Positions 7,491-54,719 are shown, counted from the stretch's first letter. The stretch is 64,000 bases of DNA from an uncultured Actinomycetes bacterium (GCA_963731055.1 CAVSUD010000009.1:196428-260427), one strand, 5' to 3'. Notes: generated by a model from the letters alone, not told the origin. Program-made: numbers and translations.

Positions 7491-8327
7491 CCTCAGCGCG
7501 CCGAGGGCGAGCACCCGCTCGACGAGCTCGTCCCTGACACGCTCGTGCTTGGGCCGGAACGGCGTCCCCGGTCGCAGCCCCCACAGCGTCAGGTGGAGGA
7601 GCTGCACGAGAAGGGCGCCGCGCCAGAACCACGCCACGTCCTCGGCTGGGACCGCGGCTTCCACCGCGGCCCGCCCGCCGGGCAGGTCGACGAGGGTGAA
7701 CCAGAGGAAGGCCAGGTCCCACGACCGGGGGTACCAGGCCGTCCACTCCCAATCGATGAGCACGGCGGCGCCCGATGCCGATCGGAGGACGTTGCGGGCC
7801 GTGATGTCGCCGTGGCCGACGACGAGCGCCGGCGGATCGTCGGCGGCCTGCCGTCGCACCGCGTCGGCCACGGTGGCCTCGAGGCAGCCTTCGGTGACGG
7901 CCGTGCGAAGGCGTCGGTGGAGGTCGAAGCGGCGCAGGAAGGGCGCCGGAGGGCGGAACCCACGAAGGGCCAACGCCAACGCCACCAGTTCCGCCACGTC
8001 ACCATCGGCCGCGGTCAGCGGGAACTTCGGTCCGAAGGGCTCGCCGTCGATGGCCTCGTAACGCAGCGTGCGGGTGCGGTGGTCGGCGGCCAAGAGGCGG
8101 GCGTGGGGGACCGGCGGGGGATGGCGACGCAGAAGGTGGCCGACCCGCCGTTCGCGCTCGAAGGGCGAGTGGCGACGGCCGAGGTACACCCATCGGAGGC
8201 GCTCGTAGCGCTTCTCCACGGTCCGGCCGTCCTCGCTCCAGACGACCGTGCATCCGCTGCCGCTCACGGTCCGCACGCCGCTCTGAACGTAGCTGACCTG
8301 CGCCTCCGCGGACCGTCCGGCAGGCAC
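7482..8327 (-). CDS. phosphotransferase-family (APH/kinase-like) protein
   Basis: C-terminal 282 codons of ORF 7482..8903(-), with HGDITARNVL and VLIDWEWTAWYPRSWDLAFLW (APH Brenner and IDWE motifs). Start set at GTG 8327 because the upstream part of the ORF is antisense to smc. The last 2 codons and the TAA stop lie inside the IS right repeat. Confidence 0.65.
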   Translation of the reverse strand: MPAGRSAEAQVSYVQSGVRTVSGSGCTVVWSEDGRTVEKRYERLRWVYLGRRHSPFERERRVGHLLRRHPPPVPHARLLAADHRTRTLRYEAIDGEPFGPKFPLTAADGDVAELVALALALRGFRPPAPFLRRFDLHRRLRTAVTEGCLEATVADAVRRQAADDPPALVVGHGDITARNVLRSASGAAVLIDWEWTAWYPRSWDLAFLWFTLVDLPGGRAAVEAAVPAEDVAWFWRGALLVQLLHLTLWGLRPGTPFRPKHERVRDELVERVLALGALRGT

Positions 8328-8345
8328 CGGTAACCTCGGATCCCA

Positions 8346-23952: not shown

Positions 23953-24724
23953 ATGGAGACCCTTCTCGTCGAGCGGGACGCCGGCGTCGTCACCGTCACC
24001 CTCGATCGTCCGGACAAGAAGAACGCGGCCAACGACACGATGTGGAACGAGCTCATCGAGGTCTTCACCGAGGTCGGCGACACCGACAGCGACCGCGTGC
24101 TGGTCGTCACCGGGGCCGGCGGGGCGTTCTGCAGCGGAGCCGATCTGAGCGCCGCGGACAGCCTCGCCCGCAACGGGCTGCGTCGGATGCGCCACATCGG
24201 GAGCGCCGCCCTCGCCCTCCACCAGCTGGCCAAGCCGACCATCGCCAAGGTCAACGGCGTCGCGGCCGGCGCCGGGTGCAACCTCGCCCTCGGGTGCGAT
24301 CTCGTCGTCGCCTCCGACACCGCCCGCTTCTCCGAGATCTTCGCCCGGCGAGGTCTCTCGCTCGACTTCGGCGGCTCGTGGTTGTTGCCCCGGCTCGTCG
24401 GGCTCCACAAGGCGAAGGAGCTGGCGTTCTTCGCCGAGGTGATCGACGCGGTCGAGGCCGAGCGGCTGGGGATCGTCGAATCGCGTCGTCCCGGCCGCCG
24501 AGCTGGACGGGTTCGTCGACGACTGGGCCCGCCGGCTGGCCGCCGGCCCGCCGTTGGCGCTGTCGATGACCAAGACGATGCTCAACAACGCGTTGATGGT
24601 GTCCATGGACCAGGCCCTCGAGGACGAGGCCCGTTCGCAGTCGGTGAACTTCGCCACCAAGGACTTCGGCGAGGCGATCGCGGCCTTCGTGGGCAAGCGG
24701 GACCCGGACTTCACGGGGAACTAG
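23953..24724 (+). CDS. enoyl-CoA hydratase/isomerase family protein (1 frameshift near 24480)
   Basis: VVTVTLDRPDKKNAAN, VLVVTGAGGAFCSGADL, AKVNGVAAGAGCNLALGCDLVVAS. The C-terminus NRVVPAAELDGFVDDWARRLAAGPPLALSMTK...FVGKRDPDFTGN is in the +1 frame. Confidence 0.85.
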
Positions 24725-25266
24725 CGGATCGTCCCGGTCGACCGCGATCGGGCCAGGTGCAGGAGCACGGCGGCCACCAACGCGATGGCACCGGCGCCGA
24801 CGGCCGCGACGACGAGATCGCGACCGAACGGCAGATCGGCCAAGGTCCCGAGGGCCAGCGCGGCGGCGTAGGCCACCACCACCGAGGCGCCCACGACGAG
24901 CCCACGCGGCGCGCCGCCCGGCACGACGGATCCGGCCGTCCGTAGCTCCGCGGCCCAGGTGATCAGCTCGGCGACGAGGAGGAGGCCGGCGGCCACAGCC
25001 GGCGTACGGGGGTCGAGGGCGGCGCCCCGGTCGTGAAGGGTCGCCACCAGCTCCGCGCCGAGGAGCGCGGCGGTCAGGGCCCCGGACGCCGGGAGCGCAG
25101 CGGTCACGCCGACGACCGCGGTCGCGACGGCGAGCGCGGCCAGGCCCTGCACGAGCGGGGCGAGGCGACCGGCGTCGAGCAACGGGACGACGGCGGTGGC
25201 CATCGCAGCCGCGACGGCACCGGCCCCGACGATCAGACGCGGACGTGCCGAGCGCGACGGCGCCAC
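24721..25266 (-). CDS. hypothetical polytopic membrane protein (last gene of the MoxR operon)
   Basis: Intact 181-aa Ala/Val/Leu-rich ORF with about 5 hydrophobic segments. Its start overlaps the DUF58 gene end. Confidence 0.5.
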   Translation of the reverse strand: MAPSRSARPRLIVGAGAVAAAMATAVVPLLDAGRLAPLVQGLAALAVATAVVGVTAALPASGALTAALLGAELVATLHDRGAALDPRTPAVAAGLLLVAELITWAAELRTAGSVVPGGAPRGLVVGASVVVAYAAALALGTLADLPFGRDLVVAAVGAGAIALVAAVLLHLARSRSTGTIR

Positions 25267-26454
25267 TGCTCCACCTCCTCGATGGCCAGGGGCAGCCCCG
25301 CCGGCGTGGTGGCCACGGCCACGGCGATGCCGAGGTGCTCGAGGCGAAGGCGTCGGGCGTCACGCTGGAGCGCGGCCAGCCGACGGCCGAGCCTCGGTCG
25401 CCGCCTCCAGGTGCGGCGCGGGGAGGGCGACGACCGCCACGTCGAAGCCCCGGGCTCGGAGGTCGAGCAGAGACTGGACGGCGGTGTCGTTGTCCAGGGG
25501 CGTGACGGCGAGGAGCAGCGCGCGGTGGCAGCGCGCCCAGCGGGATCCGCGTGACGCCGGCCCACGACGAGGTCACCAGCACCTCGGTGTCGAGGAGTCC
25601 TTCGACGACCCGGAGGAGGGCCCGTTGCCCCAGGCCGGGGGCGACCCAGCGCAGCTGCCCGCCGAAGGTGAGGAACCCGATCCGATCCCGTTGGGCGTGA
25701 GAAGCGGCGGCGACCGCGGCGAGGGCCCGCACCGACCGGTCGAGCGTGGCGGCCCGGTCGTGGCCGGACTCGCCGAACGTGTCGAGGAGCAGGACGACGT
25801 CGGCGCTGCGCTCCGGCCGGCGGTCGTTCACGAACAGCTCGCCGGGCGGACGGCGGGCCGACACCCGCCAGTTGACGGCACGGGCGCGGTCGCCGGCGGT
25901 GAAGGGACGGACGTCGGCGAACTCGATCCCATCGCCCCGGGCGCGGCTGGTGTGGTTCCCCACCCGACGCTGCAGCTCGGCCGCCGCCACGGCCCGACGA
26001 AGGGCCTGCGGTGACGGGTGGACGCGCAGCAGGAGGCGGGTGTCGTGAAGGGTCTCGCGCACGAAGAGGCGGAGCGGGTCGGCAGTGCGGACTCCGACCC
26101 GTCCGACGCGGAAGGCGCCCCAGCGCCGCGTCGTGACCGTGAGGCGGATGCCGCCTGCGAACGGCTCGGAGCCGGCGAGAGCCAGACCTCCGGGTAGCGG
26201 CACGCAGACCTCCGCGCCCGCCGGGGCGGTCACGTCGATGGTCGCCTCCTCGCCCTCGACGATGCGATCGGCGACGAGGGCGACGGAGGGTTCACCCGGC
26301 GCCGCGCCGCGCCAGGCCAGTCCGACCACCAGGAAGAGGCCGAAGGGGGCGGCGAGGAGGGCCGGCTCCGGGCGACCGAGCACGAGCGCGGCGACGAGGC
26401 CGATGATCGTGAGCGTGGCGTAGGCCCCGACCCGAGCGGTCGGCCAGGTGGTGG

Positions 26455-26458
<4 letters not shown>
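25233..26458 (-). CDS. DUF58 domain protein (vWA-like; >=2 frameshifts as assembled)
   Basis: Within ORF 24251..26890(-): MTTTWPTARVGAYATLTIIGLVAAL.. (2 TM) and GDGIEFADVRPFTAGDRARAVNWRVSARRPPGELFVNDRRPERSADVVLLLDTFG. The C-terminus is in ORF 25233..25565(-). ATG 26458 overlaps the moxR stop. Confidence 0.75.
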
Positions 26459-27452
<994 letters not shown>

Positions 27453-27456
<4 letters not shown>

Positions 27457-27983
27457 AGGGCCTCCACGGCGGCCAGCACGGCAGCCAGGGTCTCAGGGGT
27501 CGGACCGGCGGCGCGCCGGTCGCTCGGTCGGGGGCGGTCCGGTCGGAGGTGCGACCAGGCCGGCTCGCCGAGGAGCTCGGCGGCGCGCGGGTCGTCGATC
27601 GTCCGCCCGTGGCGCGCCTGCAGCCGCTCGCCGGCGGCGTCCCGCAGTTGCGGTCGGAGCCGGAAGTGGAAGGCGCCGTCGGTCTCGGTGGCGCTTCGCA
27701 TCAGGTGGTCGAGCGCCGTCGTGGGCCCGCGATCACGGGGCCCCGCCCGCCGCCGGAGGAACGGGACGGGGGGAAGTCGGCGGCGCCGGTGGAAGGGCGA
27801 GTCGGGGGGCGGGGCCTCCGACGTGGTCGTGAAGCGAAGCACGGCGCGGAGGGCGAGGAGGCCGAGGAGCATGACGTAGGCCCGGAAACCCAGGACCCGT
27901 CGCCGATCCTCGAGCAACAGCAGCGGCACCATCGCCGCGGTGAGCGCGACCACGACGACGATCGTGCTCCGGACGGTCCTCAC
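27453..27983 (-). CDS. hypothetical membrane protein (MoxR operon)
   Basis: GTG 27983 (4-nt overlap with the upstream gene) to stop 27453 (4-nt overlap with moxR). Two N-terminal TM helices (STIVVVVALTAAMVPLLLL, AYVMLLGLLALRAVL). No family recognised. Confidence 0.5.
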
Positions 27984-28909
27984 GGTGTCCTGGCGGCGGC
28001 ACCCGACGCGACCGTCGCCCGCAGGACATGGCCGAGCGCTGCGACCACCTGCGTCCGCTCCTCCTCGGTCGTCGGGCGATGGCCGAAGCGGGCCCGCTCG
28101 TAGGCGAGGGTGAGGGCCGCCGAACTCTCGACGAACGCGACGGATCCGCGGTGGACGGCCCGGATCTGTCGGAGCCACTCGTGCGGGGTCGCGGCCGAGG
28201 GGCGCGCGGCCGGGGTCGAGGCCAGGCTCCGCTCGAAGAGGGCGTACGCCAGCTGCACGGCCCGCCGGGGGTCGGGTTCGGTGGTCACGAGGGCCAACGC
28301 GGCGTCGGCGTCGTCGACCGGCACCGACTGCAAGAGCTCGGCCACCGCTCGTTCGTGTTCCCCGGTCGGATCGTCGGCGGCGGCGCTCGCCTCGTCGTCG
28401 GCGGCCGCCGACGTGCGCCTGCGGTTCCGGAGCCGCACGGTCCAGACGGCCAGCCCCGCGAGGGCGACGGTGGCGACGGCCAGGGAGGCCGTCGGCGAGG
28501 CCCGAGGCAGGCGCGACGGCTGGTCGGCCGGGGCGTCCCGGTCGGTGACCGAAGCGGCGGTCGGGGGCGGCTTCGACCCGTCGCGCGCCGGCTCGCGCCT
28601 CGAGGCGAGCACGGACATGCCGACCAGGAGGGCGGCGACCACGAGGTAGGGGATCCACTGCTGCTTCGGGGTCGGGCGCGGCGACGGCCGTCCGTCGGGC
28701 CACAGGGCCCAGGCGGCGAGGGCGCCACAGGCGATGAGGGCGACGGCCACCACGGCCAGGCCGATCGTCCTCGCCGTCGACGCCGTCTCGAAGGAGGCCG
28801 CCGTCGCGCCGGAGCTCCCGCGGCTGGCGACCACCACGGCGCCGAGCGCCACCGTCACCCCGGCCACCGCGGCCACGGCGCCTCGACGGGAGGAGGCGCC
28901 GGCCGGCAT
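27980..28909 (-). CDS. DUF4129-like membrane protein (first gene of the MoxR operon)
   Basis: Intact 309-aa ORF with several TM helices. C-terminal TPHEWLRQI...LTLAYERARFGHRP resembles the DUF4129 signature that accompanies MoxR/DUF58 clusters. Confidence 0.5.
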   Translation of the reverse strand: MPAGASSRRGAVAAVAGVTVALGAVVVASRGSSGATAASFETASTARTIGLAVVAVALIACGALAAWALWPDGRPSPRPTPKQQWIPYLVVAALLVGMSVLASRREPARDGSKPPPTAASVTDRDAPADQPSRLPRASPTASLAVATVALAGLAVWTVRLRNRRRTSAAADDEASAAADDPTGEHERAVAELLQSVPVDDADAALALVTTEPDPRRAVQLAYALFERSLASTPAARPSAATPHEWLRQIRAVHRGSVAFVESSAALTLAYERARFGHRPTTEEERTQVVAALGHVLRATVASGAAARTP

Positions 28910-29051
28910 CCGTCATTCCTAGCAACGGCGAGGGACCCGTTGTTCGTGTCGCACCCCACGGCTACGGTTCGACCGACGCCTCGAGCGGCCGGCCCGGCCC
29001 CTCCTCCGCCCACCCCGCCGTGGGGTTCCACCGGAGCACGAGGAGCGCGAC

Positions 29052-31838: not shown

Positions 31839-32620
31839 GTGGATCAGGACGACACCGACGCAATCCAACAGCTGTGGGTGGAGTACAAGGCCACCGGCTC
31901 GCGGGACGCGCGTGACCGCCTGATCGTCCACTACTCGCCGTTGGTCAAGTACGTCGCCGGCCGCGTGTCCGTCGGGCTGCCGCAGAACATCGAGCAGGCC
32001 GACCTGGTGAGCTACGGCGTCTTCGGGCTCATCGACGCCATCGACAAGTTCGATCTCGAGCGCCAGATCAAGTTCGAGACCTACGCCATCGCCCGCATCA
32101 AGGGCGCCATCATCGACGAGCTCCGCAGCATCGACTGGGTGCCCCGCTCGGTGCGGGCCAAGGCCCGTTCGGTCGAGAAGGCCTACTCCACCCTCGAGGC
32201 CAGCCTCCTGCGGACACCCACCGACGCCGAGATCGCCCACGAGATGGGCATCAGCGAGGGCGACCTCCAGACGATCTTCAACCAGATCTCCTTCGTCGGT
32301 CTCGTGGCCCTCGACGAGATGCTCTCGGGGGGGAGCGCGGCGAGTCCTCGACCCTCGGCGACACCATCCCGGACAAGGGCGAGGGACCGGTGGCGGCCTA
32401 CGAGGTCGAGGAGATGAAGCAGATCCTCGCCGGCGCCATCAGCCGCCTCGGCGACCGGGAGAAACTGGTCCTGATGCTCTATTACTACGAAGGCCTGACC
32501 CTCGCCGAGATCGGCGAGGTGCTCGGGGTCACCGAGAGCCGGGTGTGCCAGATCCACACCAAGGCCGTGATCCAGCTGCGGTCCCGCATGGCCGAGCCCG
32601 AGCGGGAGACGGCGAGCTAG
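31839..32620 (+). CDS. whiG: WhiG/FliA-family (sigma-28 type) RNA polymerase sigma factor (1 frameshift near 32340)
   Basis: [79 protein letters not shown] closely follows the Streptomyces WhiG sequence as I recall it. Region 4, [33 protein letters not shown], is in ORF 32390..32620. Confidence 0.85.
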
Positions 32621-33217
32621 ATGGCGAACGGCCCGCGCCGCAACGACCCGCAGCCGGGGTCGTCGCCCCAGGAGCGCATGGACAACGATCGACGAGAAGC
32701 ACGAGACGGAGGAGACCCGACGATGACGGCGGCGACCGGGCCTGGGCCCAAGGAGCGGGGCAAGCCCCGGGAGACCGAGACCGCGACCGACGCGGGCCCC
32801 GGACGAACCTCACGGGCGGCCCCGCCGCTGGGTGCCATCATCGCTTCGCTCCTGGTCGGCCTCCTCCTCGGCGCCGCCGGAGCGACCTTCCTGGCCAACC
32901 AGGACAGCAGCCCGTTCGCGGGCGTGATCGATTCCGGCCGCTACCAAGCCGTGATCCTCAGCAACGACAAGGTGTACTTCGGCAAGCTCGACCGGGTCAG
33001 CGACGACTACTACCGCCTCGACCAGGCCTTCTTCCTCCGGGAGACGCGCGAGAACGCCGACGCCGAGCCCGTCCGGGCGCTGCTGCCCGTCAACCGCGAG
33101 ATCCACGCGCCGGACAACACCATGTTGATCCGTGACGACGAGGTCGTGCTCGTGGAGAACCTCGCCAAGGACTCGCCGATCCTCAGCGAGATCCGGCGCC
33201 AGCTCGGCGGCAAATAG
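32621..33217 (+). CDS. hypothetical single-pass membrane protein, translationally abutted to whiG
   Basis: Intact 198-aa ORF. Its ATG immediately follows the whiG TAG. It has a charged, disordered N-terminal ~65 aa, one TM helix (LGAIIASLLVGLLLGAAGATFL) and a ~110-aa C-terminal domain (YQAVILSNDKVYFGKLD..YYRLDQAFFL). Confidence 0.6.
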   Translation: MANGPRRNDPQPGSSPQERMDNDRREARDGGDPTMTAATGPGPKERGKPRETETATDAGPGRTSRAAPPLGAIIASLLVGLLLGAAGATFLANQDSSPFAGVIDSGRYQAVILSNDKVYFGKLDRVSDDYYRLDQAFFLRETRENADAEPVRALLPVNREIHAPDNTMLIRDDEVVLVENLAKDSPILSEIRRQLGGK

Positions 33218-33228
33218 TCCTGAAAACG

Positions 33229-33255
33229 TCAGTGACTACGTCGCGTAGTCACTGA
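33229..33255 (+). terminator. perfect 12-bp palindrome with 3-nt loop (terminator of the whiG unit or an operator)
   Basis: TCAGTGACTACG-TCG-CGTAGTCACTGA lies 12 nt after the stop at 33215-33217. No U-tail. Unusually AT-rich for this genome. Confidence 0.4.
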
Positions 33256-33277: not shown

Positions 33278-33306
33278 TTGCGGTGGGGCATTCCGGGCCG
33301 TATGGT
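33278..33306 (+). promoter_or_regulatory. candidate sigma-70-type promoter of the fibre gene
   Basis: TTGCGG (33278-33283), 17-nt spacer, TATGGT (33301-33306; TANNNT). RBS GGGAGG at 33335-33340 and ATG at 33349. Pattern match only. Confidence 0.3.
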
Positions 33307-33348
33307 CTATCTGGGCACGGGGTGTGCTCTGAGCGGGAGGCGCATCGC

Positions 33349-36300
33349 ATGACGTCGGCAGGCAAATGGGTTCTCGGACTCTTGATCCTGGTTTTAGGAG
33401 CGGTCTTCGTGGCAAGGACCGTGTCTTCGGAGCCCGGTTCCGAGGCGACGATCAAGCAGTTCCAGGCCGAGAGCGCAGCCAACAGCTCGAAGCTGACGGA
33501 TGAGGCCAAGGCCAAGGCCGCCGCCGATGCGGCCGCCAAGAAGCTGGCCGGCACCGTCGCCGGCGACGTGGCCTGCAAGAAGGCCTGCATCGAGGTCAAC
33601 GAGGTCGCCAACGACGCCGTGACCACGGCCAAGCTCGCCGCCGGCTCCGTCACCCTTTCCAAGCTCGCCTTCGAGGTGCCCAACCTCAACGAGCTCGAGA
33701 ACGAGATCAGCGCCCGCAAGGCCGCCGAGGCCGCCACGAAGTCCGCCCAGGCCGAGGCCGCCGCCTCCGGCGCGAAGAACGACGCCGCCATCACCGCGGC
33801 CTCCGCCAACGGCATCACCGCCGAGGCCGCCGCCCGCTCGGCCGCCGACGCCGACCTGACCCAGAAGGTCGCCGCCGCCGACGCCGACCTCCTCGGCAAG
33901 CTCAACAAGGAGTTGACGGATCGCGGCGCCGCCGACGATGTCCTCCAGGGCAAGCTCAACACCGAGATCGCCGACCGCGCCGGCGCCATCACCAACCTCC
34001 GCGGCGAGCTGGCCAACCCCAACCAGGTCGGCGCCCCGATCATCAAGATCAACAACAACGAGATCGTCGCCGACGCCGTCACGAGCGACAAGCTGCTCGA
34101 CGGCACGATCGTCACCGCCGACCTGGCGAACGTGTTGATCACGAACGAGAAGCTCGCCCCCGACTCGATCACCACCGACAAGATCAAGGACGGCGAGGTC
34201 AAGACCTCCGACATCGCCGACAGCAACGTCACGACCGGCAAGATCGCCGATCAGAACGTGACGACGGCGAAGATCGCCAACAGCAACGTGACCACGGGCA
34301 AGATCGCCGATCAGAACGTGACGACGGCGAAGATCGCCGACAGCAACGTGACCACGGGCAAGATCGCGGATCAGAACGTGACGACGGCGAAGATCGCCGA
34401 CAGCAACGTGATCACGGGCAAGATCGCCGATCAGAACGTGACGACGGCGAAGCTCGCCGACGGCAGCGTGACGACTGCGAAGCTCGCCGACGGCAGCGTG
34501 ACCACCGCCAAGATCGCGAACCAGAACGTCACGACCGCCAAGATCGCCGACCAGAACGTCACGACCGCCAAGATCGCCGACCAGAACGTGACGACGGCGA
34601 AGATCGCCGATAGCAACGTGACCACGGGCAAGATCGTGGATCAGAACGTGACGACGGCGAAGCTCGCCGACGCCAACGTGACGACGGTGAAGATCGCCGA
34701 CGGGAACGTCACGCTCGACAAGCTCGACGCCAACTCGGTCGACAGCTCCAAGATCATCAACGGCACCATCGCCACGGTCGACCTCGGTGATGGCGTGGTG
34801 ACCCTGGCCAAGCTGGCGCCCGCGTCGGTCGACGCCTCCAAGATCGTCGCCGGGTCGATCACGACCGCCAACCTCGGCGACGGCATCGTCACGCTGGCGA
34901 AGCTCGGCGCCAACAGCGTCGACACCACAAAGGTCGTCGACGAGTCGCTCACGACCGACGACATCAAGAACGGTGAAGTCAAGACGCTCGATCTGGCGAA
35001 CCTGAACGTGACGACGGCCAAGCTCGCCAACGGTAGCGCCACCCTCCTGAAGGTTGCAGCGAGCTCGGTCGACAGCGCCAGGATCGTGGACGGGTCCATC
35101 GCCACGGCGGACATCGATGACCTCCAGGTGACGCTCGGAAGCTCGGGCCGAATTCGGTGAACGCCTCGAAGATCGTCGATGGCAGCATCACCACCGCTGA
35201 CCTCGGCGATGCCCAGGTCACGAAGCTGAAGCTCGCCGGCGACTCGGTCGACTCCACGAAGATCGTGAACGGTTCGATCGGCACCGCCGACCTCGGCGAC
35301 GCGGAGATCACCTTCGAGAAGCTGGCCGGCGGCTCCGTCCGGGGCGGTGCCGACACCGGTCCGAACAACATTCAGGACGGCTCGATCACGGAGGACGATC
35401 TGTCTCCGACGGCGATCTCGAACAACCTTGGCGCCGGGTCATTGGACGGGGCGAAGCTCAAGAACGAGTCGGTCAAGGGCGACGGGGCCGGCAGCGGTCC
35501 CAAGGGCCAGATCGCGCTCGACACGATTGGCAGCGCCAACATTCTCGACGGCCAGGTCAAGAGCGCAGACCTCGACCACACCGCCGGCACGGAGGCGGTC
35601 GACTCCGGAGCGATCCGCAATGGGGCCGTCACCTCCGCCAAGATCCTCGACGGCACGATCACCGGCGCCGACATCGCCGGCACCACGATCACCGCTGACA
35701 ACCTGGCGGATGGTGCGGTCACGACGGCGAAGATCCTCGACGGCACCATCACCTCGGCGGATCTGCAGTCCACGACTGGCGGTCCCGGCGCCGTCGCCAC
35801 CGTCAACCTCCAGGACGACGCCGTAACGGCGCCGAAGATCGCCGCCGACGCCGTGGGCGCTTCGGAGATCGCCACCGGCGCCGTCACGACGGCCGAGATC
35901 GCGGACGGCACCATCAAGACCGAGGATCTCCTCGATGGGGCCGTGACGACCGACAAGCAGACGGCGAATGCCGCCTCGGCCTCGGTGCCCCCTGCGACCC
36001 TGGTGCTCAACAGCGGGACCCTGAGCGGGACACCCGCCACGGCGAGCCTCGTCCTCACGGCCGGCTCGCACAAGGTGCTCGTCACCGGGCAGACCGTGGC
36101 GACCTGCACCTGCCCGAACCCGGGGGATTCGGCCGTCATCATCTGGCGGGCGACGGACACCGACTCGGTGCCGGCGACGACGCAGGTCGGCCCGCTCTCG
36201 ACGATCACACTGACGAACGCCGCTCCGTCCGCCGTCCTTCCGGTCTCCGGCCTCGCCGTCCTCCCGTCGGCCACCGTCGGTGCGCACCAGTACAGCCTCG

Positions 36301-36380
36301 AGGTCACGGCCGCCTTCAACGGGGCAACCGCCGTCGACCTCGTCGGCTCCGGGATCACCGCCGTCGACCTCGGTCGCTAG
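33349..36380 (+). CDS. membrane-anchored decapeptide-repeat fibre-like surface protein, ~1010 aa (1 frameshift near 35137)
   Basis: ORFs 33283..35160 and 35157..36380 join if one A is restored in GGAAGCTC, which restores the repeat register (VTLGKLGPNSVNASKIVDG). Layout: N-terminal TM helix KWVLGLLILVLGAVFVA, an Ala/Glu/Lys-rich coiled-coil-like stalk, ~60 repeats of x-x-[VI]-T-[TS]-x-K-[IL]-x-D, and a ~135-aa non-repeat C-terminal domain. Confidence 0.75.
34063..35960 (+). repeat. in-frame 30-nt (decapeptide) repeat region, about 63 units
   Basis: Strict 10-residue period from IVADAVTSDKLLDG to LLDGAVTTDKQT. The core at 34215-34700 consists of near-identical 60-bp and 30-bp DNA units encoding DSNVTTGKIA/DQNVTTAKIA. 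Confidence 0.9.
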
Positions 36381-36608: not shown

Positions 36609-38235
36609 GTGCGTCGCTTCACCGTCGTTCTGGTCGTGCTCGTCGGGCTGTCGGCGGCGCCGGCCGGCGCAGTTGTCGCTCAGACGCGGAATCCGGTCAC
36701 GTATCGGCCGCCGGTCGATGCGCCGGTGGTCGACGGGTTCCGGCCGCCGGCGTCGGACTACGGCGCCGGCAACCGGGGGGTCGACTACGCCACCACGGAG
36801 GGGCAGGCGCTGACGGCGGCGGCCGCCGGCGAGGTCGTGTTCGCCGGGCCGGTCGGCACGGCGAGACACGTCGTCGTGCTGCACGACGACGGGGTCCGGA
36901 CGTCCTACAGCTTCCTGGCCACCACGGCGGTCCGCCGGGGTGACCACGTCGAGCAGGGGGACGTGGTCGGCACGGCGGCGGCGGGACGCGGCGCACTTCG
37001 GGGCGCGGGTCGGCGGCGTGTACGTCGACCCGCTCGTACTGCTCGGCCAACGCCCGGGCGGCGGTGGGCTCCGCGCGCGGCTGGTGCCGGATCCGGAACC
37101 GGACCGGCCGCTGAGCGAGGCGGTCGAGCGGCGCGGGCTGGTCGAGACGTTGCGAGATCTGGCCCGCACCAGCATCGGGTCGGGGGCGGCGTGGCTGCGG
37201 GACCGGGCGGTCGAAACCGCGGAGCGAAAGGTGGCCTTGGCCCGGGTGCTGGCCGACACCGCGATCGATCTGTCCGTGCCGCTCCCGGTGTACCTGGCCG
37301 CCGCGGCCCTGCGGTGGCAGGAGGAGCAGACCGACTGCACGCCGGAGGGCGCGCCCGTGGCGGCCCGAGCACCGCAACGTCGGATCGTGGTGCTGGTCGG
37401 CGGGCTCGGCTCCTCGACCGGCCGCACGGCGGTGCTCGACGTGGACATCGCCGCCCTGGGGTACGACCCCGCCGATGTCCACCAGTTCTCCTACACCGGA
37501 GCGGCGACGCCGTACGCACCTCGGGACACCCTGGGCGACATCGGCGCCAGCGGGGCCCGTCTCGCGGCGCAGATCGACGACCTGCAACGGGCCCACCCCG
37601 ACGCCGCGGTCGACGTGATAGCCCATTCCCAGGGCGGCCTCGTCGCCCGCAGCGCCATCACCGTCCACCATGCCGCGCCGGCGACGGTGGTGACGATGGC
37701 GACGCCCCATCACGGCGCCGACCTCGCCACGGCGGGGGTGGCCATCGACGGCTCCATGGCCGGCCACCTGCTCCTCGAGGTCGCCGGCGGCACCCTCGGC
37801 GAGCGCGGGATCGACCCGACCGCCACGTCGATCCGGCAGATGAGCGAGGGCAGCGACTTCCTCCGTCACCTGCCCGATCAGGGCTGGTCGTCCGACACCC
37901 GGGTGGTGTCGTTGGCCGCGCGGAACGACCCCGTCGTCCCGGCCCACCAGAGCCGTTTGGCGGGCGCCGACAACGTGGTGGTCACCACCAACGGGGGGAT
38001 CGGTGGCAACGACCACAAGCTGCTGCCCGGCTCGCCACCGACGACGACCGAGGTGGCCCGGGCCCTCGCCGGGCAGGCGCCGACCTGCCGGAGCCTGCCC
38101 GACACGTTGTTGGACGAGGTCGACAGCCGCCGCATCAGCGCGGTCCACGACACGCTCGGCGCGGCGTTGGCGGCGGGCGGCCTGTACGTGGACGCGCGAG
38201 CGCGGACCGCCGGCCTCGAAGCGATCCGGCGCTGA
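36609..38235 (+). CDS. secreted fusion: degenerate LytM (M23) domain plus alpha/beta-hydrolase (lipase/esterase-like) domain (1 frameshift near 36975)
   Basis: Signal peptide MRRFTVVLVVLVGLSAAPAGAVVA. M23 core NRGVDYATTEGQALTAAAAGEVVFAG..VVVLHDDGVRTSYSFL..GDHVEQGDVVG..AAHFGARVGGVYVDP (ORFs 36609.., 36940..). Then RIVVLVGGLGSS, nucleophile elbow VIAHSQGGLVARS, and TMATPHHGADLA. Confidence 0.7.
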
Positions 38236-38282
38236 TGCGCGATGAGGTGGACGCACGACCCGCCACTACGCTCGCTCCCCCG

Positions 38283-39981
38283 ATGGGTCGGACGAGGCGC
38301 TGGGGCGCCGCCCTCGGGGGGTTCCTCGTCGCGCTCGAGCGCGGCGACGGGTGGGCTCGCGGCCCCGGCCGCCGCCGCCGCCGCCGCCGCCGAACCCGAC
38401 GACCCGTGGCTCGTCCGGGAGGCGCGGTTCGAGCCCCTCGACGCCGCTCCGCTCGGCGTCGACGGCGTGGGCGAGTACCGGGGGAGCATCCGCATCACCC
38501 GCAGCGGCGCCGGGGTCGGTGTCGTCAACGCCCTGCCGCTCGACGACTACCTGCGGGGCATCAGCGAGGTGCCGTCGAACTGGCCCATCGAAGCGCAGAA
38601 GGCCCAGGCCATCGCCGCCCGCACGTACGCCCTCCACGAGGTGGGGCGAGAGGTCAACGCCGCGTACAAGCAGGCCGGTGCGGACATCTGCGCCACGGAC
38701 GCCTGCCAGGTGTACGCCGGCCTGGCCAAGGAGCGACGACCTGGCAGCGAGCGCTGGAGTGCTGCGGTCGAGTCGACGACGGGCCAGGTGCTCGTCTACC
38801 AGGGTGCCCCGATCGTCGCCAAGTACTCGAGCTCGAACGGGGGCCAGACCGTCGGCGGCGGGCAGCCGTACCTGCGGGCCACCCCCGATCCGGACGACGC
38901 GTACAGCCCCCTCCACCAGTGGCGATCGACGTTCCCCCTCGCCGACGTCGCCCGGGTCGTCGGCCTGGCCGCCGAGCCGACCGCGCTCCGGACGGAGGGT
39001 GACGTCATCGTCGCCACCTCCCTCGATCCCGACGGCAACCCGGTGGAGCAGCGCCTGCCGGCGACCGACTTCCGGAGTCGCATCAACTCGGCCCTGGTCG
39101 CCCCGGCGGGCCTGCCCGTGGCGCTGCCTTCCACGCGCTTCGCGGCCGTGGCCGTGGACGGGCTCGTCGTCATCGACGGACGCGGATGGGGCCACGGCAT
39201 CGGTCTCAGCCAGTACGGCGCCCTCGGCAAGGCCATCCGCGGACTGAAGGCGGCCGACATCCTGGCCGCCTACTACTCGGGTCTCCGCCCGGTCGCCGTC
39301 CCCGCCGACCAGCTCCCGCCCCAGGTCAGGGTGGCCGTGGCCCTCGATCGCGCCGAGGCTTGGGTGCACAGCGCCGGCGGTCGGTTCCGGGTCGTCGACG
39401 CCGACGGACGGGTCGTCGCCCACCGGGCGACCGGCGCGTGGCGGGCCACGCCGGCCCCGAACGGACGCATCCGACTCGTCCCTCCCACAGATGAGGCCGG
39501 CGCCCCGGGTGCCGCCCTCACGACGGCCGAGCCCGCGGCCGCCCACGTCCGCCAAGCCGTCGCCCTCCGCATCGAGCTGCAGGGTCCGGCCGCCCTCACC
39601 CGCATCACGCTCACCAACCCGGCGGGCGCCACGACCGAGCTCGACCCGTCCAAGCTGCGGGCGAGCGGTCCTCTCACCGTCCGCCTCGGTGCGGCCACGA
39701 CGTCGGAGCCGGGCCCGTATCGCGTCGACTTCGAACGTGACGCCGGCGCCGGCCGGGTCGTCACCGTCCCGGTTGTCATCGACGTGGCGCCGGCCGAGGC
39801 GAAGGCGCCGGCGGCGGTGGCGAACCCCGGCGGGACCGGCCGGGACCGCCCGGCGGCGCTCGTCACCGCGGGAACCGGTTCGGTCCGGGCCCTGCAGGGC
39901 CTGGCCACCGTGCTCCTGCTCGCCGTGGTTGCCGCCGGCGCCGCCTGGATGGGGCGAAGGCCGGGCATCGAACTACACTGA
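38283..39981 (+). CDS. SpoIID/LytB-domain protein with C-terminal membrane anchor (1 frameshift near 38335)
   Basis: [18 protein letters not shown] (frame of ORF 36609..) joins ORF 38242..39981. That ORF has [62 protein letters not shown] and [16 protein letters not shown]-terminal TM helix [18 protein letters not shown]. Confidence 0.8.
38368..38391 (+). repeat. (GCC)8 trinucleotide repeat encoding poly-Ala
   Basis: Eight perfect GCC units encode the Ala run in ..[16 protein letters not shown] just after the predicted signal peptide of the SpoIID-domain protein. Confidence 0.9.
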
Positions 39982-40102: not shown

Positions 40103-41065
<963 letters not shown>

Positions 41066-41067
41066 CC

Positions 41068-41874
41068 ATGGCCGACTTCACCGCCCAGGACGTCAAGAAG
41101 CTCCGGGACCTCACCGGCGCCGGGATGATGGATGCCAAGAAGGCGCTCGTCGAGAACGACGGCGACTTCGATGCCGCCGGCAAGTGGCTGCGGGAGCAAG
41201 GCCTCGGGAAGGCTGCCGAGCGCACCGACCGCGAGAACACCCAGGGTGCGGTGGCCGTTGCTCGCGACGGCAATGCGGCCGCCCTCGTCCAGCTGAAGTG
41301 CGAGACCGACTTCGTGGCCAAGGCCCCCGACTTCGTCGCCCTCGTCAACGACCTCGCCGAGCTGGTCGCCGAGTCGGGCGAGGGCGCGGCCGCCGAGCGC
41401 CAGACCCAGATCGACGATCTCAAGCTCAGCCTCAAGGAGAACATCGAGCTCGGCCAGGTCGTCCGCTTCGAGGCGGCCGAGGGGTCGGTCATCGACGCCT
41501 ACAACCACATCCAGAACGGGCGCGGCGTCAACGGCGTGCTCGTCGAGGTCGCCGGCGGCAGCCAGGAGCTGGCCCACGACATCGCCGTCCACATCGCGTT
41601 CGCCAAGCCGGGCACGTTCGCAGCGCGAGGACGTGCCGGCCGAGGCGATCGAGGAGGAGCGGGCGACGCTGCTCAAGGAGACCCAGAACGAGGGCAAGCC
41701 CGAGGCGGCGTTGCCGAAGATCGTCGAGGGCAAGGTCGGCGGGTGGTTCAAGCGGGTTCCCGGCGGGTCGCTGCTCGAGCAGCCCTACGTCAAGGACGAC
41801 AAGCAGACCATCACACAGGTCCTCGGCGGCGGCCAAGGTCGACCCGGTTCGCCCAGGTCGTCATCGGCGGCTAG
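41068..41874 (+). CDS. tsf: elongation factor Ts (>=2 frameshifts as assembled)
   Basis: [61 protein letters not shown], then [39 protein letters not shown] (ORF 41633..), ending FAQVVIGG. Confidence 0.9.
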
Positions 41875-41884
41875 ACAGCCGACC

Positions 41885-42629
<745 letters not shown>

Positions 42630-43242: not shown

Positions 43243-44726
43243 ATGGCTGACGAGTTCGACGACGACGGGGCGCGTCCCGCACCACCGCGCCCTTCGGGCG
43301 AAGGCGTGCGCATCATCGGCGCCCAGGAGGCCGCGGCCCGCGAGGCCGAGCTGGCCGGCCGGCTGCCCGAGGACATGCCGAGGTACGGCGACGTCCCGCC
43401 TCAACCGGCGGGGCCCCGCCCCGCCGTGCGGTTCCCGCTGCCCGAGGACGCCGACCCGACCTCCCTCGTCACCAGCGGCTCGTCCTCGTCGGCTCCGTCG
43501 ACGCCGGCGCCGCCGCCGCCCGATCTGCCGCACTGGACCGAGCCGCCGACGGGCGAGGTGCCCCGCATCCTCGCCACCGACGGCGACGACCACGACGATC
43601 TCGAGGCCTGGTCGGGTCTCACCAACCGCTCGCCCCGCTGGCGGGAGGGCGAACGACTGGGAGGAAGCCGACTTCGACGACGACTCCCTCCTCGAAGACG
43701 AAGGGGAGCGCATGGGCGCCCTCGACGAGCATCGTGCCGAGCGCGACGTCTTCACCTTCGGAGAGGATCAGGAACTGTTCGACGACGAAGACGTGGCCGC
43801 CGCCCCGGCCCGGCCCCAGACCACCCGCATCCGCACCCGCATCCCGGCCGAGCCGGCGGACCTCGGCGGGGGCGGTGGGAGCGGCTCCGGCGGCGGCAAC
43901 GGGGCCGGCGGCGACCGCGACCTGCCCGTCGCCATCGCCGCCGGGGTCGGCATCCTGATCGTGGCCCTGCTGCGCCTTCTCGCAGGGCCCGAAGTGGGCG
44001 GCGGCCTTCTCCACGATCGTGGTCGTCGCCGCCGCGGCCGAGGCCTTCGACGTGTTCCGGCGGGCGGGCCACAAGCCGGCCACGCTGCTCGGTCTGGTCG
44101 CCACCGGATCACTGATGATCGGCGCCTACGTCCGGGGGGAACGGGCCATCCCGCTGGTCCTGGCCCTGGCGGTCGTGTTCGGCATGCTCTGGTACCTGTT
44201 CGGGGTGGTCCGCGGACGACCGTCGGTGAACCTCGGGATCACGTTCCTGGGGCTGCTGTGGGTCGGCTTCCTCGGGTCGTTCGCGTCGCTGATGCTGCGG
44301 TACCCCGATCGGGAGGGCGTCGCCTTCCTGCTCGGCACGGTGCTGGCGGTGGTGGCCAACGATGTCGGCGCGCTGTTCATCGGTCGCAAGTGGGGGAACA
44401 CGCCGCTGGCCGGGGAGATCAGCCCGAACAAGACGTGGGAGGGCTTCGGCGGCGCCGCCGTGTTCACGTTGCTCATCTGCGCCGCGATCGTCAGTCGGAT
44501 CCACCCGTGGGGCTTCGGTTCGGCCATCGTCCTCGGACTCGTGGTCTCGATCGTCGGACCTCTCGGGGACCTCTGCGAGTCGATGGTCAAGCGGGACCTC
44601 GGGCTCAAGGACATGGGGAGCGTGTTGCCGGGCCACGGCGGCGTGCTCGACCGGTTCGACGCCCTGCTCTTCGCCCTCCCGGCCGCCTACTACCTCGTCG
44701 AGCTCCTGAACCTCGCCGGCAAGTAG
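43243..44726 (+). CDS. cdsA: phosphatidate cytidylyltransferase CdsA with ~230-aa acidic/Pro-rich N-terminal extension (>=2 frameshifts as assembled)
   Basis: Core in ORF 44019..44726: NDVGALFIGRKWGNTPLAGEISPNKTWEGFGG and SMVKRDLGLKDMGSVLPGHGGVLDRFDALLF. TM1 (DLPVAIAAGVGILIVALL) and the extension (MADEFDDDG...LPHWTEPPTGEVPRI...DWEEADFDDDSLLEDE) lie upstream in ORFs 43243.. and 42998... Confidence 0.8.
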
Positions 44727-53150: not shown

Positions 53151-54388
53151 CTGCTCCGAACGTTGACATGCTCGACGCCATGCGGCAGATCGCCGAGCTC
53201 CGGGGCATCCCGGTCCAGACGCTGTTCGAGGCCCTCGCCAACGCCCTCGAGACCGCCTACAAGCGCATGCCGGGAGCGTGGGAGAACAGCTGGGTCGACA
53301 TCGATCCGGACACCGGCGACTACCACATCTGGGCCCAGGAGCTCGATGCCGAGGGTGCCCCGCTCGGCGAGGAGTTCGAGGTCGAGAAGGACGAGGCCGC
53401 CTTCGGGCGCATCGCCGCCCAGACGGCCAAGCAGGTCATGAGCCAGCGCATCCGCGAGGTCGAGCGCGACCAGAAGTACGAGGAGTACGCCGGCCGCGAG
53501 GGCGACATCGTCACCGGCATCATCCAGCAGAGCGACCACCGCTACACGCTGCTCGACCTCGGCAAGGTCGAGGCGCTGCTGCCCCAGGCCGAGCAGGTGC
53601 CCCACGAGCGCTACGAGCGCGGCGCCCGCCTGAAGGCCTACATCGTCGAGGTCCGCAAGACCACCAAGGGCCCGCAGATCGTCGTGTCCCGCACCCACCC
53701 GGGCCTCATCAAGCGCCTGTTCGAGCTCGAGGTCCCCGAGATCGTCGAGCGGCGTCGTCGAGATCAAGGCCTGCGCCCGCGAGCCAGGCCACCGCACCAA
53801 GATCGCCGTCTGGTCGAACGACCCGAACGTCGACCCCGTCGGCGCCTGCGTCGGCGCCCGTGGCGCCCGCGTCCGCATGGTCACCAACGAGCTGCGCGGC
53901 GAGAAGGTCGACATCGTCCCCTACTCCGAGGACCCGGCCGAGTTCGTGATGCGGGCCCTGCAGCCGGCCAAGGTCAAGGAGGTCCGCCTCGACGACGAGA
54001 CCGGCATCGCCACCGTCATCGTCCACGACTTCCAGCTGTCGCTCGCCATCGGCCGGGAGGGCCAGAACGCCCGCCTCGCCGGCCGCCTCACGGGCTGGGA
54101 GATCGAGATCAAGTCCGAGACGCAGCTGGCCGAGGAGGAGGAGTCGCCAACCGGACTGGGCCGAGGGCGAGTGGGTCGACGACGAGGCCGGCGAGATGGT
54201 GTGGCAGCCGGCCGAGGGCGGCGAGGCCATGCCGCCGAGGCCTACTACGCCGAGCCGCCGCGTGGCCGAGGCCAACCGACGCCGACGAGGCGACGCCGAC
54301 GACGCCGATCCGGAGGCCGACGGCCGCCGACCGGCGACGGCGACCGCCGCCGGCGCTCTCGACGAGGCCGCGGCGAGACCCCGCCTGA
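53147..54388 (+). CDS. nusA: transcription termination/antitermination factor NusA (>=3 frameshifts; 3' end uncertain)
   Basis: ATG 53147 overlaps the rimP stop. NTD MLDAMRQIAELRGIPVQTLFEALANALETAYKR, S1 domain GDIVTGIIQQSDHRYTLLDLGKVEALLPQAEQ, KH domains DPVGACVGARGARVRMVTNELRGEKVDIV and LSLAIGREGQNARLAGRLTGWEIEIKSE. Acidic tail DWAEGEWVDDEAGEMVW. Confidence 0.85.
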   Translation: MTAPNVDMLDAMRQIAELRGIPVQTLFEALANALETAYKRMPGAWENSWVDIDPDTGDYHIWAQELDAEGAPLGEEFEVEKDEAAFGRIAAQTAKQVMSQRIREVERDQKYEEYAGREGDIVTGIIQQSDHRYTLLDLGKVEALLPQAEQVPHERYERGARLKAYIVEVRKTTKGPQIVVSRTHPGLIKRLFELEVPEIVERRRRDQGLRPRARPPHQDRRLVERPERRPRRRLRRRPWRPRPHGHQRAARREGRHRPLLRGPGRVRDAGPAAGQGQGGPPRRRDRHRHRHRPRLPAVARHRPGGPERPPRRPPHGLGDRDQVRDAAGRGGGVANRTGPRASGSTTRPARWCGSRPRAARPCRRGLLRRAAAWPRPTDADEATPTTPIRRPTAADRRRRPPPALSTRPRRDPA

Positions 54389-54389
54389 C

Positions 54390-54642
54390 ACGCGGAGGCG
54401 ACGACGCCCAGCGGACCTGCATCGGTTGCCGCACAGGCGGCCGAAGCTGGGACACTCGGTACGGATCGTCCGCTCGGACGACGGCTCGCTGGCCGTCGGG
54501 CGGACGCTTCCCGGTCGAGGCGCGTGGCTCTGCGACGCGTCACGTGGCCTGTCTGGATCTCGCCCTGCGCCGCAAGGCGTTCGGGCGGGCGTTCCCGGGC
54601 TCCGATCCGCGACGGAGCGCGCCCGAATCGCTTCGTGCGTAG
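54390..54642 (+). CDS. ylxR: YlxR (DUF448) family RNA-binding protein (frameshifted; start uncertain)
   Basis: RTCIGCR, VRIVRSDDGSLAVGRTLPGRGAWLC and LALRRKAFGRAF lie in alternating frames (ORFs 54196.., 53877..). Canonical nusA-ylxR-infB position. Confidence 0.6.
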
Positions 54643-54719
54643 CCTCGATCGGAACGTGCGAGGATCGGTAGCTGCCGACATGTAACGGTCGAATGCAGTT
54701 CGAGAGGAACCCTCACCCC

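Follow-up and report, generated by a model that had tools for sequence, protein, structure and literature searches.

A candidate surface fibre with a phage-type decapeptide shaft, encoded at a fixed locus beside whiG in uncultured Acidimicrobiales

Introduction

BclA of Bacillus anthracis and B. cereus is composed of a basal attachment, a length-polymorphic trimeric repeat shaft and a C-terminal TNF/C1q-like trimeric tip; its shaft is of the collagen G-x-y type and its attachment, through the anchor BxpB/ExsFA, is to the exosporium basal layer. Tail fibres of T7-like phages are also trimers and begin with a virion-attachment domain (PF03906), while trimeric autotransporter adhesins are held in the diderm outer membrane by the YadA anchor (PF03895). 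The mosaic adhesive trimer (MAT) fibres of Bdellovibrio bacteriovorus have been found experimentally to be surface-displayed trimers whose TNF-like tips bind glycans, and the lectins BC2L-C of Burkholderia and PLTL of Photorhabdus are trimers in which sugars are bound between subunits (PMC10769870). MATs such as Bd2734, Bd2439 and Bd1399 are chromosomally encoded, phage-fibre-like proteins of about 1000 amino acids (aa) with a conserved cell-proximal and a diversified distal end; they carry a cleaved signal peptide, a conserved beta-rich N-domain of about 130 aa and a beta-helical trimeric shaft, and form a 21-member paralogous family in this diderm predator. Here we describe a gene, called below the fibre gene, whose product invites comparison with all of these proteins. 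It lies in a stretch of 64,000 nucleotides, the window in what follows (GCA_963731055.1, CAVSUD010000009.1:196428-260427), from an uncultured Actinomycetes bacterium that was assigned to Acidimicrobiales.

Our analyses lead us to propose that the product of the fibre gene is probably, though by no means certainly, a trimeric surface adhesin or lectin fibre of the MAT or BclA kind. The protein consists of an N-terminal hydrophobic segment, a helical stalk, a decapeptide shaft related to phage tail fibres and a C-terminal tip whose model is a beta jelly roll, and among its orthologs a conserved base is combined with exchanged shafts and tips. What appears to be new here is the fibre family, with its fixed locus beside whiG and its partner protein; the repeat itself is known, and the concept has a precedent from 2024.

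Results

The shaft repeat is shared with phage tail fibres

A ten-residue period dominates the protein. In residues 243-872 a lag of 10 gives an identity of 0.356, compared with 0.095 +/- 0.012 in 2000 shuffled sequences (z = 22.6). The lag-5 identity is just 0.075, meaning that the decapeptide is a fixed pair of unlike halves. No period-3 signal was found in the protein, in agreement with the preliminary description, which had set aside collagen G-x-y repeats. In the first and longer block of the shaft (Table 1) the unit follows the consensus [NS]-V-T-T-A-K-[IL]-A-D-[GQS]; each of the 42 units has V or I at position 2 (once L, once A) and I, L or V at position 7. The last 21 units of this block form seven super-repeats of 30 residues (residues 453-662; VTLxKLxxx, SVDxSKIVxG, SIxTADLGDx), for which the lag-30 identity is 0.41 and TRF reports a period of 90 bp. 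Together with the second block and two extra units at residues 89-108, the protein holds about 55 decapeptide units. The strong period noticed earlier is therefore real, but the strict part covers 1.26 kb instead of 1.9 kb, with some 55 instead of some 60 units. At the DNA level the copies are 72-83% alike, which means that the array is not made of identical repeats prone to collapse.

The decapeptide had been described as belonging to no recognised repeat family, yet it proved to be widespread. The window protein matched two PHROG families annotated as 'tail fiber protein', phrog_28766 (E = 1.2e-94) and phrog_892 (E = 3e-87), together with a dozen further tail or virion families; the two tail-fibre matches are confined to the repeat region (residues about 234-548). 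In a protein search in which 8000 candidates were scored, more than 5400 database proteins shared the repeat. Of the best 120 of these relatives, the T7 tail-fibre N-domain PF03906 is present in 22 and the S74 endosialidase-type trimerisation chaperone PF13884 in 7, and others have Mtd_N, YadA stalk or head, DUF5907, Pentapeptide_4 or PF25296, the last being the Pfam 'Decapeptide repeat region', which matches the same stretch of the relatives as Pentapeptide_4. When phage genomes were searched with tblastn, the repeat was found, at 41-60% identity to phage fibres across about 300 aa, in the annotated tail fibres of the T7-like cyanopodoviruses S-CBP4, S-CBP3 and S-TIP37, in unnamed proteins of P-SSP2/3, P-GSP1, NATL2A-133 and P-SCSP2, and also in minor tail proteins of Gordonia phages and in the J protein of a Paracoccus phage.

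Two entries of the PDB were matched by the repeat profile: the orf16 chain of the Legionella phage LME-1 capsid (9EG4, E = 3.8e-8), which we take to be the trimer-based head decoration protein described in the paper on that entry, and the fibre gp28 of P-SCSP1u (8I4M, E = 5.5e-6), a trimeric fibre. The papers on both entries leave the distal fibrous part unmodelled, and our sequence search found no experimental structure of the decapeptide repeat. A match to the short fibre of SU10 (7Z4B, E = 0.008) was discarded as too weak, the matched part being itself an AlphaFold model. A search of the literature for decapeptide repeats in tail fibres or beta-helices, or for pentapeptide repeats in cyanophage tail fibres, returned nothing relevant. 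The decapeptide repeat is common and linked with trimeric fibres, and is not new.

The resemblance of the repeat to pentapeptide proteins (PF00805, PF13576, PF13599; Qnr, HetL, MfpA) has led us to consider whether the shaft could instead be a single-chain solenoid rod, that is, a monomeric, pentapeptide-like right-handed quadrilateral beta-helix (Rfr fold). In that fold two pentapeptides would correspond to one decapeptide, and 20 residues make one coil. A hydrophobic residue does return every five positions (2 and 7 of the unit), in the second block the scores of phases 0 and 5 are equal, and the half-units [S/G/Q]-N-V-T-T and A-K-I-A-D, of the general form [S/A]-[N/K]-[V/I/L]-[T/A]-x, resemble the A(D/N)LXX rule. 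Sub-threshold matches to the NCBIfam models HetL (6e-9) and Qnr (8e-4), a relative (P0002) that clears the Pfam cut-off of Pentapeptide_4, and PDB sequence matches, weak at about 1e-6, to designed pentapeptide-based beta-solenoids point in the same direction. However, the NCBIfam scores of about 36 bits stand against cut-offs of 125-480 (the best being 35.7 bits for a cut-off of 260), and no Pfam pentapeptide family matched the joined protein at E <= 1. Pfam gave nothing meaningful for it at all (CooT and Nse4 noise). PF25296 itself, with a gathering threshold of 45 bits, did not match the window protein at E <= 1, and four relatives (P0002, P0003, P0006, P0041) reach 25-37 bits, below the cut-off as well; shaft relatives do carry PF13599 or PF25296 matches, whereas the window protein stays below every curated threshold. 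The earlier statement that the repeat is not of the pentapeptide type is thus right only in part, given the five-residue hydrophobic recurrence and the weak sub-threshold matches.

Other observations also speak against a monomeric solenoid. In the full-length AlphaFold2 model of the monomer the repeats have a per-residue confidence (pLDDT) of 30-48 and no solenoid, albeit from a shallow alignment, while the helix and the tip are modelled confidently in the same run. The inward-facing i-2 residue would be Q, S, G or N in every second half-unit, the super-period is 30 residues and not 20, which is compatible with three faces per turn, and the repeat accompanies trimer-specific modules and a trimer-type tip. 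Taken together, we regard the single-chain rod as quite unlikely.

The tip resembles TNF/C1q-like jelly rolls

The C-terminal domain, which had been described as about 135 aa of non-repetitive and beta-rich sequence, is indeed non-repetitive and all-beta over residues 873-1010. It is a beta sandwich of pLDDT 84-92 in the full-length model, and a model of the tip by itself, based on 14 orthologous tips, reached pLDDT 85.9 and pTM 0.79. Foldseek searches of the PDB with the full-length and the tip models returned almost only TNF/C1q-like jelly rolls of trimeric proteins, at TM-scores of about 0.45-0.56 and identities of 10-17%; in the search with the tip model, TL1A, CD40L, RANKL, Caprin-2 C1q, BC2L-C and PLTL were matched with a probability of 1.00 and E-values of 2.5e-5 to 1e-3. 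Bdellovibrio Bd1399 was the best match in both searches, and Bd2734 was matched in the full-length search only. Further matches comprised the receptor-binding domain from cyanophage A-1(L)'s short tail fibre, ExsFA/BxpB, the lectins BC2L-C and PLTL, TL1A, RANKL, CD40L, 4-1BBL, the C1q domain of Caprin-2, Chlamydia Pgp3 and birnavirus VP2. A search of BFVD with the full-length model gave mostly low-confidence extended matches and was used only to note C1q- and collagen-type fibre proteins. The likeness to trimeric fibres of phages and to BclA suggested at the outset fits these results: the tip matches TNF/C1q-like folds, the repeat is shared with proteins bearing PF03906 or S74 domains, and the repeats of the monomer model are unfolded.

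Hydrophobic segment, base module and stalk

W7-A22 is the sole hydrophobic stretch of the protein (Kyte-Doolittle mean over 19 residues of up to 2.3; all 11 windows above 1.6 are N-terminal) and is nearly invariant among orthologs. Signal peptides that are cleaved are not usually so conserved, and the comparison thus favours a retained signal anchor. In residues 24-240 a linker of low complexity leads to a CxxxC motif and two repeat units, after which comes a 110-residue helix. More precisely, behind the Ala/Lys-rich linker lie C76-K-K-x-C80, the two repeat units and the invariant block FEVPNLNELENEI; in 19 sequences C76, K77, K78, C80, T92, T93, K95, G99-F108 and V110-L113 are invariant. AlphaFold2 models residues 113-222 as one helix (pLDDT 71-88), a candidate coiled coil. 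The stalk also contains an 18-residue repeat (54 bp according to TRF; AADADLLGKLNKELTDRG / AADDVLQGKLNTEIADRAG). The order first read from the sequence, in which a hydrophobic anchor at the N-terminus is followed by a helical stalk, a long shaft of decapeptides and a globular tip of beta type, was right.

In a representative library the 18-residue motif of the stalk occurs in multiple copies in well over 100 other long proteins, and has the appearance of a further fibre module in wide use.

A narrow family at a fixed chromosomal position

We compared 16 loci, namely the window and 15 others (three on long metagenomic contigs, nine from species-representative genomes and three reached via the upstream gene). 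The nine were obtained by scanning species-representative genomes with the N-terminal module, and all are from Acidimicrobiales or Actinomycetota metagenome-assembled genomes (MAGs). In 16/16 loci, as far as the contigs reach, the fibre gene comes after whiG and a small membrane protein, in this order, and before the gene for an M23 peptidase; more widely, comM and dprA lie upstream of whiG, and rpsB, tsf, pyrH, frr and cdsA follow the M23 gene, sometimes with SpoIID in between. Intact orthologs at the same locus measure 679-1015 aa; they share the start M[TSG]SAGKW, and most end in ...AVDLGR. The N-terminal 245 aa have a mean column identity of 70% with 54 invariant columns, and the centre and the C-terminus are mosaic: the centre is a mix of repeat types, and C-termini of at least three unrelated kinds occur (...AVDLGR, ...WKVQWIDLAA and the one in P0093). 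A base that is kept while shaft and tip are exchanged is typical of fibres for recognition or adhesion that evolve under diversifying selection, a logic also set out for the Bdellovibrio MATs (PMC10769870). Since an exhaustive profile search of 1.84 billion representatives found the whole N-module in just about 20 clusters, the family is narrow; this distribution, within Acidimicrobiales and Actinomycetota MAGs or metagenome contigs, is what became of the survey of homologues that had been suggested. The label 'accessory' given initially to the gene is doubtful, because its place on the chromosome is the same in all relatives found.

The partner gene, which encodes the small membrane protein, abuts the whiG stop codon and is adjacent to the fibre gene in 15/15 related loci. 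Its product, in which a variable N-terminal part that looks disordered precedes a conserved domain of about 110 aa at the C-terminus, matches nothing in Pfam or NCBIfam and is a candidate anti-sigma factor for WhiG or a candidate dock for the base of the fibre. In an intact ortholog of the locus the sigma factor clears the NCBIfam cut-off of the WhiG equivalog (379 against 343 bits). The M23 peptidase carries a fused alpha/beta-hydrolase domain of the DUF676/PGAP1-like type, a combination found clade-wide that measures about 555 aa in intact orthologs; in the window, as in some of the other loci, a gene for a SpoIID-domain protein comes next. The order whiG - M23 peptidase - rpsB that the preliminary description gives for other actinobacteria is consistent with these findings.

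With WhiG, the M23 fusion and SpoIID as neighbours, one may ask whether the protein is rather a wall-spanning structural or regulatory part of envelope remodelling, for instance a scaffold or ruler in division or differentiation. This idea draws on the fixed position of the gene, which in all 16 loci is flanked on one side by whiG with the small membrane protein and on the other by M23/DUF676, joined in some genomes by SpoIID, and on the strong conservation of the base module. On the other hand, whiG, M23 and rpsB presumably adjoin in other actinobacteria without a fibre gene, and the adjacency may be historical. The fibre gene moreover has its own candidate promoter of the sigma-70 type (see below), and no match to the WhiG/FliA-type motif (TAAA-N13-18-CCGATA) occurs anywhere in the window; a hypervariable shaft and swapped tips are unexpected for an internal scaffold, and the tip resembles lectins and receptor-binding domains. 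For these reasons a role within envelope remodelling seems to us unlikely.

The gene is intact apart from an assembly error

In the assembly the gene is split into two open reading frames on the + strand, 33283-35160 and 35157-36380, in frames one base apart. Near position 35137 the first frame reads GTG ACG CTC GGA AGC TCG ... TGA and the other ... CGG AAG CTC GGG CCG AAT TCG GTG; any base added after CTCGG fuses the two into a protein of 1010 aa from ATG 33349. The repaired junction translates V-T-L-G-K-L-G-P-N-S-V and keeps the register of the repeat (...QVTLGKLGPN SVNASKIVDG...), the lost base lying within a GG/AA run (GGN AAG: GG to GGG or AA to AAA). This is the single-base indel that had been postulated on first reading, and the joining of the frames together with the preserved register bears it out.

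The break at 35137 could also be taken as decay, so that the gene would be a genuine pseudogene or the remnant of a prophage tail fibre and would give no functional fibre; the similarity of the shaft to phage tail fibres, closer than to anything else, and a GC content falling to 0.65 over the gene would agree with this. Yet a tblastn comparison of the window with intact proteins from the orthologous locus L002 revealed the same kind of frame jump in genes for enoyl-CoA hydratase (ECH), whiG, M23, rpsB, tsf, pyrH and, twice, cdsA (Table 1), several of them essential (rpsB, tsf, pyrH, cdsA), and the same frameshift artefact recurs in a second MAG of the clade (L013). Because essential genes share them, the breaks in the window are assembly indel errors and not gene decay; the frameshift at 35137 is an assembly error, and the fibre gene is to be treated as intact. 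Both the repeat register and the GC content of third codon positions (GC3) run on unchanged beyond the break, GC3 being 0.90-0.95 over the whole gene and equal in comM, dprA, rpsB and dxr. The local dip (0.65 against 0.72-0.76) arises at codon positions 1 and 2 and reflects an amino-acid composition rich in Thr, Lys, Asn, Ile and Asp. In addition, the gene has no phage neighbours (those present are MoxR/DUF58, comM, dprA, whiG, M23, SpoIID and rpsB), its product has no virion-attachment domain, and the chromosomal site is the same in all relatives. We consider a dead gene or phage remnant very improbable.

Horizontal acquisition as the cause of the GC dip was rejected, the dip being confined to codon positions 1 and 2, and a prophage origin was ruled out by synteny, native GC3 and the lack of phage neighbours. 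For users of this assembly it follows that the window is from an indel-prone source, and the apparent pseudogenes in it, which are assembly indels, should not be trusted as such.

Discussion

How might such a protein be arranged on the cell? In the arrangement that we propose, the N-terminal hydrophobic segment would hold the exported chain in the cytoplasmic membrane or, alternatively, the N-terminus would be cleaved and the conserved base module would dock on the co-encoded small membrane protein. Three chains would join through the CxxxC base, close to the membrane, and through the long helix, whose approximately 110 residues could take the protein through the wall. The ~55 decapeptide units would then form a triple beta-helical shaft. 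In known triple beta-helices such as T4 gp5 the rise is ~0.48 nm per unit; if this value applied here, the first block would extend for about 20 nm and the whole shaft for about 26 nm. This would put the TNF-like tip outside the wall, at a distance of some 45-50 nm from the membrane, and there it could bind a ligand, the glycans at the subunit interfaces of the matched lectins (BC2L-C, PLTL, Bd2439) being a precedent.

Several points weigh against this proposal. Trimerisation, surface exposure, topology, ligand and dimensions are what we infer, as distinct from the architecture, the conservation pattern, the fold of the tip model and the phage affinity of the shaft, which are observed. With 16 residues the hydrophobic segment falls short of the usual length of a membrane helix, and a possible signal-peptidase site, V-S-S, precedes E28. 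The poor model of the monomeric shaft may just reflect a shallow and badly aligned set of 19 sequences, and the PDB matches to designed pentapeptide solenoids count, weakly, on the same side. The modelled tip supports a likeness to TNF/C1q jelly rolls at the general level of the fold, short of homology, and as a sequence query the tip domain by itself gave no match at E <= 0.001. Finally, all relatives are MAGs or metagenome contigs.

Comparison with the described systems helps to delimit the family. With the MAT fibres it shares a size of about 1000 aa, a chromosomal gene, a phage-fibre-like build, TNF-like tips and, if our proposal is right, a beta-helical trimeric shaft, and it is mosaic in the same sense, with its 70% column identity in the N-module, a mosaic centre and three or more types of tip. 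It differs in its N-terminal part, where a hydrophobic anchor is followed by a CxxxC motif and a long helix in place of the MAT signal peptide and beta-rich N-domain. It also differs in number, the monoderm actinobacterial lineage having a single gene at a fixed locus, and no sequence similarity to MATs was seen outside generic repeats. The tail fibres of T7-like cyanopodoviruses (S-CBP4, S-TIP37, P-SSP2/3, P-GSP1, NATL2A-133 and P-SCSP1u gp28) and the minor tail proteins of Gordonia phages have the same decapeptide repeat; unlike the phage fibres, which start with PF03906 and are found in phage genomes, the fibre protein lacks this domain and is encoded among housekeeping genes with native codon usage. 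ExsFA/BxpB jelly rolls being among the matches of the tip, there is a likeness to the BclA system, but the fibre protein has no collagen and a membrane segment instead of the exosporium attachment. The tip superposes on the BC2L-C N-domain and on PLTL at a TM-score of about 0.5-0.56 with an identity of only 10-13%, a comparison at the level of the fold. In contrast to trimeric autotransporter adhesins, the protein shows no match to the YadA anchor, stalk or head and has a soluble jelly-roll C-terminus, and in contrast to sortase-dependent adhesins it lacks a C-terminal LPXTG and hydrophobic segment, ending in ...GSGITAVDLGR. It therefore appears to represent an undescribed, lineage-specific family of phage-fibre-like surface fibres with an anchor-stalk module of its own and a conserved partner gene, outside the MAT, BclA and phage fibre groups. 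The name 'trimeric autotransporter adhesin', which NCBI gives to the ortholog MEA3075354.1 (L005), must be wrong for a protein that lacks a YadA anchor and has an actinobacterial host, and it is corrected here.

Acidimicrobiales are abundant in soil and water and mostly uncultured, and to our knowledge almost nothing is known about their cell surface. The fibre is a concrete candidate for how these bacteria recognise surfaces or partners, or are recognised by phages, and it would extend the idea of bacterial phage-fibre-like adhesins, as established for the Bdellovibrio MATs, to monoderm Actinomycetota with a different anchor. It also draws attention to a decapeptide repeat that is present in thousands of phage and bacterial fibre proteins and remains structurally unmodelled in 9EG4 and 8I4M. 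It is tempting to go further and to picture the fibre and the adjacent small membrane protein as an undescribed two-component surface organelle in a free-living lineage of Acidimicrobiales, in which the small protein would be a dock or sensor and the fibre a trimeric phage-type rod, with shaft and tip modules exchanged with phages, serving cell-cell or particle recognition and possibly acting as a phage receptor or decoy. We hold this extended version to be rather doubtful; if true, it would be an actinobacterial counterpart of the Bdellovibrio MATs with an independent solution for anchoring, and would for the first time offer tractable material for solving the structure of the decapeptide shaft that is so widespread in phages.

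Expression signals and neighbouring features

The coordinates of the features of the locus are given in Table 1.

Table 1. Features of the fibre locus and frame jumps in the window (positions counted from the first nucleotide of the window).
Feature	Position	Strand	Description
Partner gene	32621-33217	+	198 aa, single-pass membrane protein, directly upstream of the fibre gene
Inverted repeat	33230-33254		perfect, 11 bp; CAGTGACTACG-TCG-CGTAGTCACTG; 13 nt after the partner stop, upstream of the fibre promoter
Candidate sigma-70 (housekeeping) type promoter	33278-33306	+	TTGCGG 33278-33283, 17-nt spacer, TATGGT 33301-33306
Leader hairpin	33313-33329	+	GGGCAC-GGGGT-GTGCTC, directly after the predicted transcription start
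Ribosome-binding site	33335-33340	+	GGGAGG, 8 nt before ATG 33349; purine-rich block at the same place in orthologs
Fibre gene	33349-36380	+	1010 codons + TAG; single base missing at 35137
Hydrophobic segment W7-A22	33367-33414	+	candidate signal anchor or h-region of a signal peptide
Invariant base module	33574-33672	+	C76-K-K-x-C80, then two decapeptide units (residues 89-108)
Alpha-helical stalk	33685-34014	+	residues 113-222, candidate coiled coil, predicted about 16 nm
18-residue repeat of stalk	33873-33987		54-bp period
Shaft block 1	34075-35333	+	residues 243-662, 42 decapeptide units, one unbroken register
Single-base deletion site	35137-35138	+	codon G597 = GG-, then AAG
Irregular Gly/Asp-rich segment	35334-35609	+	residues 663-754; repeat register broken; pLDDT < 50
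Shaft block 2	35610-35963	+	residues 755-872, ~11 decapeptide units, hydrophobic residue every 5 positions
C-terminal tip domain	35964-36377	+	residues 873-1010 (138), modelled as TNF/C1q-like beta jelly roll
M23 peptidase fused to DUF676/PGAP1-like hydrolase	36609-38235	+	
SpoIID-domain protein	38242-39981	+	after the M23 fusion
Frame jump, ECH	24467-24480		
Frame jump, whiG	32327-32333		
Frame jump, M23	36983-36994		
Frame jump, rpsB	40813-40861		
Frame jump, tsf	41610-41624		
Frame jump, pyrH	42481-42483		
Frame jumps, cdsA	43650-43652 and 43971-44008		

Upstream of the fibre gene, TTGCnn and TAnnnT are invariant at a spacing of 17-18 nt in 12/12 orthologous upstream regions compared. The promoter call rests on this conservation because a scan for E. 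coli-type promoters was empty, and it suggests that the fibre gene is probably transcribed on its own by the housekeeping holoenzyme. A hairpin in the leader is present in most of the 12 orthologs, where the stems differ and the pairing is kept (GGGCA/TGCCC, GGACAT/ATGTCC, GGCC/GGCC, GGGCG/CGCCC); the pairing was read by eye and from single-sequence folds, and the minimum free energy fold of the window sequence is a different, overlapping pairing. The hairpin may stabilise the mRNA or have a regulatory role. Both the ribosome-binding site and the start codon are as first described, and the starts of the orthologs agree with them. The inverted repeat between the partner gene and the promoter, at whose position CGTAG-like motifs are also found in orthologs, might serve as a terminator that lacks a T-run, or else as an operator.

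Further upstream, between the hydratase gene and comM (24251-28925), the window contains genes for a MoxR-type AAA+ ATPase (26455-27453, - strand) and a DUF58 protein (within 24251-26887, - strand), a block that was not found in the orthologous locus L002 and whose genes are present upstream of comM in L004. Two other stretches of the window, 8001-11000 and 54001-57000, have an unusually high GC content, 0.75-0.79 against 0.70-0.74 elsewhere.

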